Sequence record: PQ100635.1
Source: Escherichia phage PNJ-9
DNA: 64,000 nt
Strand: one strand, 5' to 3'
Numbering within the stretch: the first letter of the stretch is position 1; each line of letters opens with the position of its first letter. The position numbers were made by a program, and so were the translations under genes. The notes under the pieces were generated by a model. That model had not been told where the DNA came from, searched no databases, and saw only the letters and a program-made list of their open reading frames with translations. Positions 3,089 through 60,371 of the stretch are shown here, one piece after another.

Positions 3089-5414
<2,326 letters not shown>

Positions 5415-14410: not shown

Positions 14411-14418
14411 TATTTATA
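14411..14418 (-). promoter_or_regulatory. T4-type late promoter (TATAAATA) for gene 9
   Basis: TATTTATA on plus strand about 33 nt upstream of the gene 9 ATG. Confidence 0.6.
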
Positions 14419-21339: not shown

Positions 21340-23073
21340 TTACCCAATATCAATACGAGATCCGTCAACAGTGTATTGTCCTGAAGCTACTGAGCTCATT
21401 GTAGACATTGTTTCTGCCCAATCCCCGGCAACAGTCATATCAACATTACCATTAACAGTCCATTTAACGTTTCCGTTGACGGTGTAATCATGATTCCCTT
21501 CGACCTGAGTTTTAGCATCACCTTTAACAAGAATATCTGCATTTCCGTCAACAACTATTTTGATATTACCCTTAACGTAAAGAGTTCCATCGCCTTCAAC
21601 AGTTTTAGATTGGTTACCGCGAATAAAGATTGTGTCATTGCCATCTATTTGATGGAGGCGGTCTGCCATGTTATAATATATTTCGTTAGCACCAACGTTA
21701 ACAAGCTTATCGCCAGAAATCAAGAAGTTCCCGTCGCCATTAGTGATGTCAAAAAGGTCTTCTACAGTTTTACGAGTACGTCGCCCGGACGGAGAAACTT
21801 CCTCATATGACCCTGTTGGATGAACTAAGCGATAACGTTCATTACCTGGAGTATCGTCAAATTCTTGGATATGACCGCTTTCTGTTTCCATAGCATGAAC
21901 GTATGGATACTCACCACGATAACTTGATTCCGGTTCTTTAAAAAGGATGCGTGAATCTAACGGAACAGGAGGACCAGCTGGGTCTTCTGGATCGGTATTT
22001 CTAGTAACTAAATCAGCACCAACTCCTGGTGAAGGTGGTGTTTTAACAGGAACGCCATATGATTCCATGTTACCAGTTAAAATAATTGTTGTTACACGTG
22101 AAGCACGCCCTTTAGTCTGTTGGAACCATAACGAATCGCGTCCAGATTTGTATGCGGTTTTCCAATCACCTGTGGCCATTGCTTTAAGCATAGTATTGAA
22201 TTTTGCTACACCACCAACGCCCATCTGGAAGCACATGTTTTCTAATGCCATTTGGCGAGATCTGTTCATTTTAGCATAAACAGGACCTACTTTAGAATTA
22301 GAACGAATGTCTTTCTGCATCTTAGCAAGGTCCTTCTCAAATAATGCTGTTGCTTCTTCTAATGTAATAGTTCCCGGATTTCCTGTTACTTCACGCCCTA
22401 CTTGATCAGATAACAATTTATTAATTCGAGACATATCTCGGGTCTTTTCCATTACGATAAGGTGTCCAATACCTACTGTAGGATACCCGAGATGGTCCCA
22501 ATACACTTTATCACGAAGACCTTCGTCACGACGTAACATTTCTGTTATTGTAAAATTAGGGTCATCATCTTCTGGAATATTTGCTAAATCTGTATCATCT
22601 GGGTTTATACCATAATCCAAGTTGTTATCTTGAATTACGTTAGAGTTTGAATAATAACCAGCTTCGCCGCCTTGGTTTAATACGTTCGTATCATTACCTA
22701 AACGTCGCGGATACTGACCTGTCGGGTCTGAAAAACCTTCAAGTCTATTAGGCTTTTCACGTACTATTCCACCGTATGTACCAAGTACAATCCCGTTTGT
22801 TTTCCATTTGTCTAAGAAATGACCATATACTCGAGTTCCTTCAACAGGACCTGTAACAGAACCACCAATACCTGACATTGATGCAGACGTAATAGGTTGA
22901 ATAACAGTCATCCATGGAAGTTTTTCTGTAGGAATACCTTGTACATCACCTTGTGTTCTCTGTGCCGGATGAAGACCAACGACTCGAACTCGAACTCGCC
23001 CTTGTTTTAATGGGTCCATTCTGTCCTCGACAACGCCCACGAACCAATTAAGGCTACTGCTAATCATTTCCAT
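21340..23073 (-). CDS. 5: baseplate hub/spike protein gp5 with lysozyme domain
   Basis: 577-aa ORF MEMISSSLNWFVGVVEDRMDPLKQGRVRV...; lysozyme-like segment DEGLRDKVYWDHLGYPTVGIGHL; C-terminal V-x-G-x repeats of a beta-helix. Confidence 0.95.
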   Translation of the reverse strand: MEMISSSLNWFVGVVEDRMDPLKQGRVRVRVVGLHPAQRTQGDVQGIPTEKLPWMTVIQPITSASMSGIGGSVTGPVEGTRVYGHFLDKWKTNGIVLGTYGGIVREKPNRLEGFSDPTGQYPRRLGNDTNVLNQGGEAGYYSNSNVIQDNNLDYGINPDDTDLANIPEDDDPNFTITEMLRRDEGLRDKVYWDHLGYPTVGIGHLIVMEKTRDMSRINKLLSDQVGREVTGNPGTITLEEATALFEKDLAKMQKDIRSNSKVGPVYAKMNRSRQMALENMCFQMGVGGVAKFNTMLKAMATGDWKTAYKSGRDSLWFQQTKGRASRVTTIILTGNMESYGVPVKTPPSPGVGADLVTRNTDPEDPAGPPVPLDSRILFKEPESSYRGEYPYVHAMETESGHIQEFDDTPGNERYRLVHPTGSYEEVSPSGRRTRKTVEDLFDITNGDGNFLISGDKLVNVGANEIYYNMADRLHQIDGNDTIFIRGNQSKTVEGDGTLYVKGNIKIVVDGNADILVKGDAKTQVEGNHDYTVNGNVKWTVNGNVDMTVAGDWAETMSTMSSVASGQYTVDGSRIDIG

Positions 23074-23648
23074 TATGCAATCTCCATCTCACGAATCAAA
23101 TCTGTGATAAACGAGTTTATATCTTCTTTTGCAACAATTTTTATTTTACGAAGTTTTTCATTATCTAATACTGCAGCTTCATAAGTATCTACTGCAGCTA
23201 AAGGTCCTTTATATTGCGGATACTTACGAGCTTCATCACCTTTATCGTACCACACTAAAGGCTCGTCCGGATATGAAACCAAATTGTAAAATTTCTCATG
23301 ATTTTCATTAATATGATAAAGAACTTGGTCGCCGCCAGCATTAGCATATTTCTGAATAGAAGCTTGATACGCTGCTTCCTGAGATGTAATCCAACCATAA
23401 TACGGATCATAGTTGTCATTACACATCAAAAGGACCCAGTATAATTGAGGGTTGCCATAAATTATGTTTGCTAGTTCTTCAGGACGCGGAGAGCCTTTAA
23501 TATAATAAGAACGTAATCTATAATTGGCAGCAACACGCTTAAAGTACTCTTTATAGTTACGAAATATGTCTGTCATAGGAATAGTAGGTGCGTTCTTATT
23601 AACTGTTTTAGCACTATATCCTATTGGGTCGAAGAATGTAAATAACAA
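23073..23648 (-). CDS. 53: baseplate wedge protein gp53
   Basis: 191-aa ORF MLFTFFDPIGYSAKTVNKNAPTIPMTDIF; matches T4 gp53 as recalled; apparent TTG start 7 nt after a strong SD AAGGAG. Confidence 0.85.
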   Translation of the reverse strand: MLFTFFDPIGYSAKTVNKNAPTIPMTDIFRNYKEYFKRVAANYRLRSYYIKGSPRPEELANIIYGNPQLYWVLLMCNDNYDPYYGWITSQEAAYQASIQKYANAGGDQVLYHINENHEKFYNLVSYPDEPLVWYDKGDEARKYPQYKGPLAAVDTYEAAVLDNEKLRKIKIVAKEDINSFITDLIREMEIA

Positions 23649-23675
23649 GATAGTCTCCTTCCAATATGAAATTGG

Positions 23676-23683
23676 TATAAATA
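23676..23683 (+). promoter_or_regulatory. T4-type late promoter (TATAAATA) for gene 4
   Basis: Exact TATAAATA on plus strand 27 nt upstream of the gene 4 ATG; SD AAGGAGG follows. Confidence 0.65.
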
Positions 23684-23690
23684 ATAATAC

Positions 23691-23698
23691 TATTTATA
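23691..23698 (-). promoter_or_regulatory. T4-type late promoter (TATAAATA) for gene 53
   Basis: TATTTATA on plus strand, i.e. TATAAATA on minus; divergent from and 8 nt away from the gene 4 promoter. Confidence 0.65.
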
Positions 23699-23709
23699 AG
23701 GAGGACAAC

Positions 23710-24159
23710 ATGGCCTACTCTGGTAAATGGGTCCCAAAAAATTTAAAAAAATACCGTGGAGACCATACCAAAATAACGTATCGTTCAAACTGGGAAAAAT
23801 TCTTTTTCGAATGGTTAGATAAAAATCCAGAAATTATTGCATGGGGTAGTGAAACGGCAGTAATTCCATATTTCTGTAACGCAGAAGGTAAGAAACGTCG
23901 ATACTATATGGACATATGGATGAAAGATGCATCAGGTCAAGAGTTCTTTGTAGAAATAAAACCAAAGAAAGAAACTCAACCACCTATTAAGCCTGCAAAT
24001 CTTACTACCGCAGCAAAGAAACGTTATATGAACGAGCTCTACGTGTGGTCTGTGAACTGTGACAAATGGAAAGCTGCCTCAGCTGTTGCTGAAAAGAGAA
24101 ATATAAAATTCCGAGTTCTAACCGAGGATGGTCTTAGAAAACTCGGATACAAGGGGTAA
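23710..24159 (+). CDS. 4: head completion protein gp4
   Basis: 150-aa product [35 protein letters not shown]...; matches T4 gp4 as recalled; start at internal ATG after SD AAGGAGG. Confidence 0.9.
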
Positions 24160-25723: not shown

Positions 25724-26458
25724 ATGGAGCTAATCTTTTTAAGCGGCATCAAACGTAGTGGTAAAGACACTACTGCCGATTACATCAATTCAAACTTTAA
25801 ATCCGTAAAATACCAATTGGCATATCCGATTAAAGACGCTCTAGCAATAGCCTGGGGACGTAGGCATGCTGAAAATCCTGATGTATTCACAGAGTTGAAA
25901 TACGAATACTTTGAAGGCATTGGATACGACCGTGAAACACCATTAAATCTCAATAAGTTGGATGTTATTGAATTATTGGAAGAAGCGCTAATTTATTTGC
26001 AAAGTCAATATTTACCAATTAATAATGTTAAAGTATTATCATCGTTAGAAGGTGGATATTCATATCTAGATATTAAACCATATGAAGCCCTGCGTGAAGC
26101 TATAAATAATATCAACGACACATGGTCAATCCGCCGTCTTATGCAAGCCCTCGGTACGGATGTTGTCGTTAATTTATTTGACCGTATGTATTGGGTTAAA
26201 CTTTTTGCATTAAACTATATGGATTATATTGGAAGTGATTTCGATTACTATGTTGTAACCGATACACGCCAAGTCCATGAAATGGAAACCGCTAGAGCGA
26301 TGGGTGCTACAGTTATTCATGTGGTTCGCTCTGGTACGGAATCCACTGATAAACATATTACAGAAGCTGGGTTGCCTATTGAAGAAGGCGATTTAGTTAT
26401 TACAAACGACGGCTCTTTAGAAGAGCTTTATTCTAAAATTGAAACAATCTTAAGGTAA
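25724..26458 (+). CDS. 1: deoxynucleoside monophosphate kinase gp1
   Basis: 244-aa ORF MELIFLSGIKRSGKDTTADYI...; P-loop-like SGIKRSGKDT; matches T4 gp1 as recalled. Confidence 0.9.
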   Translation: MELIFLSGIKRSGKDTTADYINSNFKSVKYQLAYPIKDALAIAWGRRHAENPDVFTELKYEYFEGIGYDRETPLNLNKLDVIELLEEALIYLQSQYLPINNVKVLSSLEGGYSYLDIKPYEALREAINNINDTWSIRRLMQALGTDVVVNLFDRMYWVKLFALNYMDYIGSDFDYYVVTDTRQVHEMETARAMGATVIHVVRSGTESTDKHITEAGLPIEEGDLVITNDGSLEELYSKIETILR

Positions 26459-57038: not shown

Positions 57039-57512
57039 ATGTTATTATCTGGCAAATTATACAAAGAAGAAAAACAAAAATTTTATGATGCACAGAATGG
57101 TAAGTGTCCTATTTGCCACCGTGAATTAGACCCTGATGTTCAAGGTAACCATCTTGACCACGACCACGAATTAAACGGGCCAAAAGCAGGTAGAGTTCGT
57201 GGGTTACTCTGTAATCTGTGCAACGCAGCAGAAGGCCAAATGAAGCATAAGTTCAACCGTTCCGGTCTTAAAGGACGTGATGTCGACTACCTCGAATGGC
57301 TTGAAGCTCTTCTTGCTTATTTGAAACAAGATTATTCTGATAATAATATCCATCCTAATTTTGTTCCAGACAAAACTAAAGAGTTCTCAAGACTAGGTAA
57401 AGAGGAAATGATGGCTGAGATGCTTCAAAGAGGATTTGAATATAATGAATCTGATACCAAAACACAATTAATAGCTTCATTCAAAAAGCAGCTTAGAAAG
57501 AGTTTAAAATGA
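57039..57512 (+). CDS. 49: endonuclease VII (Holliday junction resolvase) gp49
   Basis: 157-aa ORF MLLSGKLYKEEKQKFYDAQNGKCPICHRELDPDVQGNHLDHDHE...; near-identical to T4 gp49 as recalled. Confidence 0.9.
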   Translation: MLLSGKLYKEEKQKFYDAQNGKCPICHRELDPDVQGNHLDHDHELNGPKAGRVRGLLCNLCNAAEGQMKHKFNRSGLKGRDVDYLEWLEALLAYLKQDYSDNNIHPNFVPDKTKEFSRLGKEEMMAEMLQRGFEYNESDTKTQLIASFKKQLRKSLK

Positions 57513-58046
57513 AAATTGAAAAAGAAATTGAAGGATTAATTCATAAAACTAATAAAGATCTTTTGAACGAGAATGCTAATAAAGATTCTCGTGTTTTTCC
57601 AACTCAACGGGACCTTATGGCTGGTATTGTGTCTAAGCACATTGCCAAAAATACGGTCCCGTCTTTTATTATGAAAGCACATGAAAGCGGAATTATCCAT
57701 TTCCATGATATTGATTATTCTCCTGCTCTTCCATTTACTAATTGCTGTTTAGTCGATTTAAAGGGGATGCTTGAGAATGGATTTAAATTAGGCAATGCTC
57801 AAATTGAAACGCCTAAATCGATTGGTGTTGCTACTGCAATTATGGCACAAATTACTGCGCAGGTTGCTTCCCATCAATACGGTGGAACTACATTTGCGAA
57901 TGTAGATAAAGTCCTTTCTCCTTATGTTAAACGCACCTACGCAAAACATATTGAAGATGCAGAAAAATGGCAAATCTCTGATGCGTTGAATTATGCCCAA
58001 TCTAAAACAGAAAAAGATGTCTATGACGCGTTCCAGGCGTATGAGT
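57509..58046 (+). CDS. nrdD: anaerobic ribonucleoside-triphosphate reductase NrdD, exon 1
   Basis: ORF from ATG 57509; predicted 5' splice site after T58046, where exon ATGAGT pairs with the intron guide GCTCAT ending in a U-G pair; the downstream stop is intron-encoded. Confidence 0.75.
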
Positions 58047-58257
58047 TAATTTAATTCAGGCTCATGTAAAACCGGTCTAAACGGGGAACCTCTCTAGTAG
58101 ACAATCCCGTGCTAAATGTTCTTTTGAACTAAATGCCTAACGACTAACCGTGATGAATGTAGCGGTGTAGAATAGAAGCTAATGCTATTCGAAACGGCCG
58201 GCATCGAAAGATGAAGATATAGTCTAATCTGCATGGCGACATGCAGCAGTCATCTTG

Positions 58258-58265
58258 TATAAATA
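58258..58265 (+). promoter_or_regulatory. T4-type late promoter (TATAAATA) inside the intron, upstream of the endonuclease ORF
   Basis: Exact TATAAATA 30 nt upstream of ATG 58295. Confidence 0.55.
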
Positions 58266-58294
58266 AGATTATCTTATGAATACGAGGTGAAACA

Positions 58295-59065
58295 ATGAAA
58301 TGGATAAAAAGACGTTGTACTAAAATAAAAGATAAAGACGCATTTACATACTTAGTTAAGTTTTCTAATGGTGACATTTATATCGGTTATAAAAAATTTA
58401 GAACAATTAAAAACAAGCCCACAAACTGGAAAACTTACACAACGTCATCTAAGTATATAAATGAACGCTTAAAAACTGATACACCTACTAAATGGATAAT
58501 TTTAAAAACATTTGATAGTTATAAAGATGCATTAAAACATGAAGAAGAGGTCATACGTAAATATTTTTATAGCAAAAAATGTTTAAATAAATCCATAGGC
58601 GGTAAAAAGTTTTATAAGCATCCGGATACTGAAGAACATATTCAAAAATTAAGAGATGCTCATAAGGGTAAAGTGTTATCCGAATCTCATAAAAACAATA
58701 TAAAATCTTCTGTAGCTGAATATTATGCTAAAAACGGAAGATCTAAGGAACATGTGCAAAATAATATCAATAGTCGAAAAAGTAAAAAACAAGTATCGAT
58801 AAAGCTTAAAAATAAAACTTTTAGAAGTTTTAAAAAAGCAGCGGAATATTTAAATTGCACTGAAAGTGAAGTCGAAACTCATCCTCTTGTTTTGAGTATT
58901 AAGACTACTATTCATAAAGTTCCTGAATATGTGGTTGTTGACGGTATTAAGTATACGTCTTATATAGAAGCAGCTAAAGCGCTAAATTTTCATCCTAGCA
59001 CTATAAAAGAACGTTGCATATCTATGGACTATCCAAATTTTGTTGTTTCATATAAACGGGCATGA
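58295..59065 (+). CDS. intron-encoded GIY-YIG homing endonuclease (I-TevII-like)
   Basis: 256-aa basic ORF inside the intron; GIY-YIG-like motif TYLVKFSNGDIYIGYKK; position matches the T4 nrdD intron endonuclease. Confidence 0.7.
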   Translation: MKWIKRRCTKIKDKDAFTYLVKFSNGDIYIGYKKFRTIKNKPTNWKTYTTSSKYINERLKTDTPTKWIILKTFDSYKDALKHEEEVIRKYFYSKKCLNKSIGGKKFYKHPDTEEHIQKLRDAHKGKVLSESHKNNIKSSVAEYYAKNGRSKEHVQNNINSRKSKKQVSIKLKNKTFRSFKKAAEYLNCTESEVETHPLVLSIKTTIHKVPEYVVVDGIKYTSYIEAAKALNFHPSTIKERCISMDYPNFVVSYKRA

Positions 59066-59091
59066 ATTTGCGACTCATGCTGAATATAATG

Positions 59092-60371
59092 ATGAAGTAA
59101 ATACACTTTTCAGCTCTAATGGACAAACGCCTTTTGTAACAATTACATTTGGCACGGGAACTGACTGGACTGAACGAATGATTCAGAAAGCAATTCTGAA
59201 AAATCGTATTAAAGGTCTTGGCCGTGACGGGATAACTCCTATTTTCCCTAAACTTGTTATGTTCGTTGAAGAGGGTGTCAATCTTTATAAAGACGACCCG
59301 AACTACGATATTAAGCAGCTTGCTTTAGAATGCGCAAGCAAAAGAATGTATCCTGATATTATTTCAGTTAAGAACAATAAAGCTATTACTGGTTCTTCAG
59401 TTCCTGTTTCTCCGATGGGCTGTCGTAGTTTCTTGAGCGTATGGAAAGATTCGACTGGTAATGAAATTCTTGATGGACGTAATAATCTTGGTGTTGTAAC
59501 ACTGAATCTTCCTCGTATTGCATTAGATTCTTATATTGGAACACAATTCAATGAACAGAAATTTGTTGAGCTATTTAATGAACGAATGGATCTGTGTTTT
59601 GAAGCTTTGATGTGTAGAATTAGTTCTTTAAAGGGTGTTAAAGCAACTGTAGCTCCTATTCTTTACCAAGAAGGTGCATTCGGGGTTCGTCTTAAACCTG
59701 ATGACGATATAATTGAGTTATTTAAAAATGGTAGAAGTTCAGTGTCCCTAGGATACATTGGTATTCACGAATTGAATATTCTTGTCGGACGTGATATTGG
59801 ACAGGAAATTTTAACTAAAATGAATGCTCGTCTTAAGCAGTGGACTGAAAGAACCGGTTTTGCTTTTAGTTTATATTCTACTCCTGCTGAAAACCTTTGT
59901 TATCGCTTCTGTAAACTTGATACAGAAAAATATGGAAGTGTAAAAGATGTCACCGATAAAGGCTGGTACACTAACAGTTTCCACGTTTCAGTAGAAGAAA
60001 ATATTACTCCATTTGAAAAGATTTCTCGTGAAGCCCCATATCATTTCATTGCAACAGGCGGTCACATTTCTTATGTTGAACTTCCAGATATGAAAAATAA
60101 CTTAAAAGGTCTTGAGGCTGTCTGGGATTATGCTGCACAACATTTAGATTATTTTGGTGTTAATATGCCAGTAGATAAATGTTTTACATGTGGAAGTACT
60201 CATGAAATGACTCCTACTGAAAACGGATTTGTTTGTTCAGTTTGTGGAGAAAGTGATCCTAAAAAGATGAACACCATAAGAAGAACATGTGGTTATTTGG
60301 GAAATCCGAACGAACGCGGATTTAATCTCGGTAAAAATAAAGAAATCATGCATAGGGTTAAACACCAATGA
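59092..60371 (+). CDS. nrdD: anaerobic ribonucleoside-triphosphate reductase NrdD, exon 2
   Basis: Splicing 58046 to 59092 restores ...FQAYE-Y-EVNTLFSSNGQTPF...; C-terminal Zn ribbon CFTCG...CSVCG and glycyl-radical motif RRTCGYLG. Confidence 0.85.

Follow-up and report, generated by a model that had tools for sequence, protein, structure and literature searches.

In bacteriophage T4, late genes are transcribed by the host RNA polymerase carrying gp55 at the late-promoter box, with activation by gp33 and gp45 and without the need for a -35 element (Geiduschek and Kassavetis 2010). The box occupies positions -13 to -6 (Nolan 2006, PMC1524935), and an A at -13 is a known common variant of it (Nolan et al. 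2006, PMC1524935; Geiduschek and Kassavetis 2010). Lists of such promoters should be read with some caution, as not all of the 50 T4 late-promoter sites listed have been proven to be active in vivo (Geiduschek and Kassavetis 2010). For the related phage RB69, 31 late promoters have been predicted (Nolan et al. 2006, PMC1524935, supplementary file 5), two of which, Pl:80613 (+, 80613-80655) and Pl:80684 (-, 80642-80684), are overlapping models. These two straddle the RB69 spacer between genes 4 and 53 (80627-80687).

In T4 itself, the orthologous spacer (NC_000866, 77338-77384) separates the same divergent genes and, in the orientation used here, contains TATAAATA tattatc TATTTATA AGGAG. In addition, both boxes have been annotated in relatives. 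For instance, they are described as 'similar to TATAAATA T4-late promoter' in Escherichia phage vB_EcoM_SA79RD (OL960576, Mosigvirus) and as 'predicted late promoter' in Yersinia phage fPS-65 (LR215724, Tequatrovirus), these features being, like those reported below, sequence-based annotation and not experimental mapping. The promoter pair and the TTG start of gene 53 that are described here had, in T4, RB69 or their relatives, been either known or annotated before.

The spacer and its flanking genes

The spacer studied here is found within a stretch of 64,000 nucleotides, all of which was analysed (the window). The 1.3 kb around it are 97-98.5% identical to many Mosigvirus genomes (RB69-like, Tevenvirinae), and the genes annotated under this match code for the baseplate hub/lysozyme (gp5), the baseplate wedge (gp53), head completion (gp4) and the DNA end protector (gp2). 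To judge by this similarity, the window is a Mosigvirus genome, that is, an RB69-like T-even genome. The protein encoded by gene 53 matches the Pfam profile PF11246 (Phage_gp53) with an E-value of 4e-91, its residues 1-186 aligning with positions 1-199 of the 200 in the profile, which makes it a full-length family match, and it matches T4 gp53 (PDB 5hx2/5iv5) with an E-value of 9e-112 (residues 1-189 on 1-189). In gp4, the Pfam TnsA-like N domain (TnsA-like nuclease) is recognised with an E-value of 4e-20, the N-terminal 11 residues are the same as in T4, and the records of relatives annotate the gene as head completion or head closure.

The original prediction placed at this spacer the switch point between a minus-strand and a plus-strand block of genes. 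This switch is real: in the ORF table of the window, every long ORF up to 23648 is on the minus strand, and every one from 23710 onwards is on the plus strand. The features of the spacer are collected in Table 1.

Table 1. Features of the gene 53/gene 4 spacer and its surroundings, and further exact copies of the late-promoter box in the window (minus-strand positions that are joined by two dots are written 5' to 3')
Feature	Position	Strand	Basis or remark
Intergenic spacer, gene 53/gene 4	23649-23709		61 bp; read from sequence
Predicted late-promoter box of gene 4 (TATAAATA), orthologous to that of T4	23676-23683	+	Exact match
Predicted late-promoter box of gene 53 and the genes after it, 5, 5.1 etc. 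(TATAAATA)	23698..23691	-	Exact match
Predicted +1 (A), late message of gene 4	23689	+	21-nt leader; -13 to -6 rule
Predicted +1 (A), late message of gene 53	23685	-	37-nt leader; -13 to -6 rule
Shine-Dalgarno AAGGAGG of gene 4	23698-23704	+	5 nt before ATG; read from sequence
Shine-Dalgarno AAGGAG of gene 53	23660..23655	-	6 intervening bases before TTG; read from sequence
Mosigvirus-specific palindromic stretch, CCAATTTCATATTGG on the mRNA strand	23661-23675	-	15 nt; part of the leader of gene 53
TTG start codon predicted for gene 53	23648..23646	-	Homologous to the T4 ATG
Gene 53 (191 aa; gp53 of the baseplate wedge)	23648..23073	-	Pfam and PDB sequence matches
Gene 4 (149 aa; head completion), ATG at 23710-23712	23710-24159	+	Pfam; T4-like N-terminus
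Other exact TATAAATA	418-425, 1039-1046, 1695-1702, 3089-3096, 14411-14418	-	Co-oriented with local genes
Other exact TATAAATA	26101, 30202, 40015, 45870, 49264, 57003, 58258	+	Co-oriented with local genes

Sequence reading and motif search found the two boxes at the positions predicted for them on both strands. The distance of 8 nt that had been given, on the other hand, is a difference between coordinates, and the actual gap consists of 7 bases (23684-23690). From box to start codon there are 26 nt in the case of gene 4 and 42 nt, from the other box, in that of gene 53. The Shine-Dalgarno of gene 4, which is also found in T4 and RB69, has its first base in common with the promoter box of gene 53. 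Two predicted promoters and two ribosome-binding sites fit in 61 bp.

The closest described spacer is that of RB69 (NC_004928), which is identical to that of the window save for one base (a C-to-T change just before the TTG, at -1) and has the same boxes, the same TTG start and the same insertion in the gene 53 leader. In T4, both boxes are likewise present and 7 bp apart, its gene 4 leader is like that of the window (the complement of a box followed by AAGGAG), and its gp53 begins with the same residues, MLFTFFDP. By contrast, gene 53 of T4 starts with ATG and its spacer has 47 bp, whereas the window has TTG and 14-15 extra nt in the gene 53 leader.

An ORF of 197 aa that runs from an ATG at 23566 was also considered as gene 4 and was rejected, as it is a mechanical upstream extension of 48 codons that crosses both the spacer and the start of gene 53 on the opposite strand. 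A gene caller that takes the longest ORF would misannotate gene 4 in this way (23566-24159, +), the real start being the ATG at 23710.

Arrangement of the two predicted promoters

If the T4 rule for the position of the box (-13 to -6) is applied to the window, the gene 4 leader would read ACTATTTATAAGGAGGACAACATG through its ATG, and that of gene 53 would read ATTATTTATACCAATTTCATATTGGAAGGAGACTATCTTG through its TTG. The two promoters had been described as back-to-back, a description that does not fit these positions. In fact, each box is downstream of the predicted start site of the other and, consequently, the promoters are predicted to be interleaved, with the 5' ends of the two messages overlapping, and complementary to each other, over what should be some 5 nt. 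The arrangement in T4 is interleaved in the same way, and it shows neatly how compact the regulatory DNA of T-even phages can be.

According to the mechanism that we propose, the plus-strand box (23676-23683) would direct the start of the gene 4 message at around 23689, and the minus-strand box (23698..23691) that of the gene 53/5 baseplate message at around 23685. Both start sites would be located within the 7-bp gap, and each leader would carry the complement of the other box. The boxes, centred near -10, would be read by the host RNA polymerase with the phage sigma-like protein gp55, and gp33 and the gp45 sliding clamp would act as activators, all of which we assume from T4. As the melted regions of the two open complexes would overlap, we infer that the promoters may exclude each other on one DNA molecule. 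Finally, gp53 would be translated from the UUG at 23648..23646, 6 nt past AAGGAG, the same codon being used as AUG by relatives. We estimate a probability of about 0.9 that the 61-bp spacer consists of two interleaved, opposed promoters of the T4 late type together with a UUG start for gp53.

A more elaborate reading would give this geometry a regulatory role. Competition of the two promoters for the shared melted DNA would fix the ratio of the transcription of gene 4 (head completion) to that of genes 53/5 (baseplate), and Mosigvirus would have retuned gp53 post-transcriptionally through the change from AUG to UUG and the insertion of 14-15 nt. The observations behind it are the geometry and the co-occurrence of the codon change and the leader insertion, and we regard it as a speculative and rather unlikely extension.

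Conservation of the box pair and expectation by chance

The spacer was compared with those of T4 and RB69 and with orthologous spacers from 12 further genera. Both boxes are exact and 7 bp apart in Dhakavirus IME281 and Jiangsuvirus PspYZU05. The 7-bp spacing is also observed in Karamvirus CC31, Gelderlandvirus CGG4-1 and Tegunavirus fHe-Yen9-01, where the gene 53 box is AATAAATA. Both boxes are kept with a spacing of 10 bp in Klebsiella phage Roth76 (Jiaodavirus-like) and Marfavirus, and of 15 bp in Lazarusvirus, while in Krischvirus the spacing is 8 bp and one box is a variant with one mismatch. In Muldoonvirus VP8 (Cronobacter phage vB_Cdu_VP8, 334-403), the boxes are overlapped back-to-back as TATTTATAAATA. 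The bases between the boxes vary across genera while the boxes persist and, as the gap may be of 8, 10 or 15 bp or the boxes may overlap, the 7-bp geometry is, on this comparison, not essential.

The proposal that these are late promoters of genes 4 and 53 is consequently borne out, as far as comparison can tell, by the presence of the same pair in T4, RB69 and other genera, by its prediction in RB69 (Nolan 2006), where the box of gene 4 in the window corresponds to Pl:80684 and that of gene 53 to Pl:80613, and by its annotation in OL960576 and LR215724. An 8-bp box, a co-oriented placement 5' of a late-gene orthologue (orthology being judged by Pfam, PDB sequence matches and synteny) and conservation at the orthologous site, which are among the marks of a T4-type late promoter, were all found.

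The locus varies in other ways in some relatives. VP8 combines its overlapped boxes with a GTG start of gene 53, so that start codon and promoter geometry both vary between genera. Two CC31-like IMG/VR contigs (L010, at 798-1451, -, and L013) carry a 217-aa HNH-type endonuclease-like ORF (MDYQRHYNSLMDRAKDRNLN...HHIIPR...) between the divergent late-promoter pair and gene 4, which follows and overlaps the 3' end of the ORF. This ORF uses the leader and the ribosome-binding site that serve gene 4 in CC31, and it would seem to be a mobile gene that was inserted immediately after the late promoter of gene 4.

The number of boxes was also compared with what chance would yield. Calculated analytically from the composition of the spacer itself, about 0.02 and 0.01 boxes would be expected in 61 bp on the respective strands, and both together with a probability of about 2e-4. 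In the whole window, 14 exact copies of TATAAATA are present on the two strands together, as compared with 8.35 in dinucleotide shuffles. All 14 are co-oriented with the genes that they precede (Markov models of order 1-4 predict 4-5), and outside the gene 53/4 spacer the window has no antisense copy, where about 4 would be expected. Such a pattern is what functional late promoters, together with the avoidance of spurious ones, would produce. Chance is therefore an unlikely source of the pair, given the low number of boxes expected, the co-orientation of every copy in the window and the retention of the pair at the orthologous site in other genera.

It may still be argued that TATAAATA-N7-TATTTATA is mainly a chance palindrome of AT-rich DNA, or a site for an AT-preferring protein, and that one or both late messages start elsewhere. 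The spacer is indeed 72% A+T, T4 DsbA is known to bind AT-rich sites that overlap two late promoters, and activity has not been demonstrated for some of the listed T4 late boxes (Geiduschek and Kassavetis 2010). However, two exact matches to an 8-bp consensus are present at the low joint probability given above, it is the boxes that are conserved and the bases between them that change, and the retention of both boxes with spacings of 10 or 15 bp, or overlapped, is better explained by two independent promoters than by a single palindromic site. Moreover, a motif search of the window found no further TATAAATA ahead of gene 53 or gene 4, and sigma-70-type promoters between 23300 and 24000 are at chance level (5 found, 3.3 +/- 2.1 expected). 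We consequently hold this explanation to be improbable by a wide margin. Terminator matches in the same interval are at chance level too, and an Rfam search of it returned nothing relevant, only a weak and meaningless miRNA match.

Several of the 12 other copies of TATAAATA map roughly to RB69 late promoters of Nolan 2006 (PMC1524935). For instance, the copy at 26101, inside gene 1, corresponds to Pl:78258, and that at 14411, before gene 9, to Pl:89887, while the copy at 1695-1702, inside gene 18, is without counterpart in that list.

Another copy (58258-58265) precedes an ORF for a GIY-YIG/NUMOD1 homing endonuclease (58295-59065) that lies within a split gene. Near the end of the window, where the ORFs scanned include pin, endonuclease VII, nrdD and nrdG, the anaerobic ribonucleotide reductase gene nrdD (57509-60371, +) is divided into two pieces, 57509-58054 and 59040-60371, which align with positions 1-141 and 145-562, respectively, of the Pfam NRDD profile. 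These pieces are separated by some 1.05 kb that contain, besides the endonuclease ORF, the core of a group I intron (58015-58246; Rfam RF00028, E = 1.3e-18, 74 bits), which is missed at the default 'gathering' threshold of Rfam. Most of this intron stretch is present in only 43 of the 359 matching phage records, and it has an exact segment of 42 nt in common with the T4 td intron.

Leader and start codon of gene 53

Compared with T4, the leader of gene 53 is longer by about 14 nt because of the 15-nt palindromic stretch, which is found in the window, in RB69 and in all the Mosigvirus sequences seen, and which is absent from T4 and the other genera. The palindrome, CCAAUUUCAUAUUGG, is located beside the ribosome-binding site, and it could be proposed to fold into an RNA hairpin with a regulatory effect exerted jointly with the weak UUG. 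A stem of 5 bp is possible, and the stretch is specific to the clade that bears the UUG. Against this proposal, the folding energy of the leader is that of shuffled sequences (-8.5 as compared with -8.3 +/- 2.5 kcal/mol, z = -0.08), its minimum-energy fold does not include the hairpin, and no Rfam family matches it; the stretch is invariant among Mosigvirus sequences and, hence, offers no covariation signal to assess. We would give a regulatory hairpin little credence. The gene 4 leader also folds no better than its shuffles (z = -0.50).

With regard to the start codon, the original prediction was that gp53 begins at a TTG preceded by AAGGAG, with no in-frame ATG upstream. This proposal was confirmed at the level of sequence, with 6 bases between the two elements: reading upstream in frame, no ATG, GTG or TTG is encountered before the TAA at 23696..23694, the homologous codon of T4 is ATG, and the Pfam profile aligns from residue 1. 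An ATT in frame at 23672..23670 was considered as a start and discarded, as it has no ribosome-binding site and belongs to a stretch that is absent from other genera.

A comparison of start codons with relatives had been suggested as a check, and its outcome agrees with the proposal: the same codon is ATG in T4 and nine other genera, GTG in VP8 and TTG in the Mosigvirus sequences read, so that the codon homologous to the TTG is ATG or GTG in 11 other genera. The aligned starts read ATG CTC TTT ACA in T4 and TTG TTA TTT ACA in the window, and in every genus aligned gp53 begins with M[L/I]F[S/T]FF. Within Mosigvirus, TTG is present in 9/9 of the other sequences read at base level, among them RB69, SA79RD and O157 typing phage 3. 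Pattern scans of the start-codon context contributed two of these sequences as contigs from IMG/VR and three as contigs from the metagenome collection, a small number but all with TTG. The TTG is annotated as the start of the CDS in NC_004928 (RB69 RefSeq, 80688-81263), NC_041863 and OL960576. Consequently, the TTG start is a lineage-specific feature that is already on record. The N-terminal peptide predicted from it is MLFTFFDPIGYSAK.

Translation from the first in-frame AUG, Met25 (23576..23574), with no synthesis of the TTG-started extension, would agree with the fact that AUG is by far the commonest start codon. Of the 23 CDS in the RB69 neighbourhood, 21 have an ATG start, the two exceptions being a GTG and the TTG of gene 53. 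Nevertheless, between codons 2 and 25 the window differs from T4 by 12 synonymous and 2 non-synonymous changes, an excess from which we conclude that these codons are probably translated and under purifying selection. As, in addition, the conserved M[L/I]F[S/T]FF opening, the Pfam profile and T4 gp53 all place the N-terminus at residue 1, Met25 is missing in several genera (the internal ATG is, therefore, not conserved as an alternative), and codon 25 is without a ribosome-binding site comparable to the AAGGAG ahead of the TTG, initiation at Met25 can be considered the least probable of the explanations discussed here.

For annotation, gene 53 should therefore be called from the TTG at 23648 and not from the internal ATG, gene 4 from the ATG at 23710 and not as the ORF from 23566, and the strand-switch point should be marked as a conserved late-promoter pair. 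Beyond correct annotation, these assignments matter little.

At its other end, gene 53 meets gene 5, the stop codon of the former and the ATG of the latter having one base in common (23071-23075, -, both ORFs meeting at 23073). This one-base overlap suggests translational coupling of the two genes, which in T4 overlap by 17 nt.
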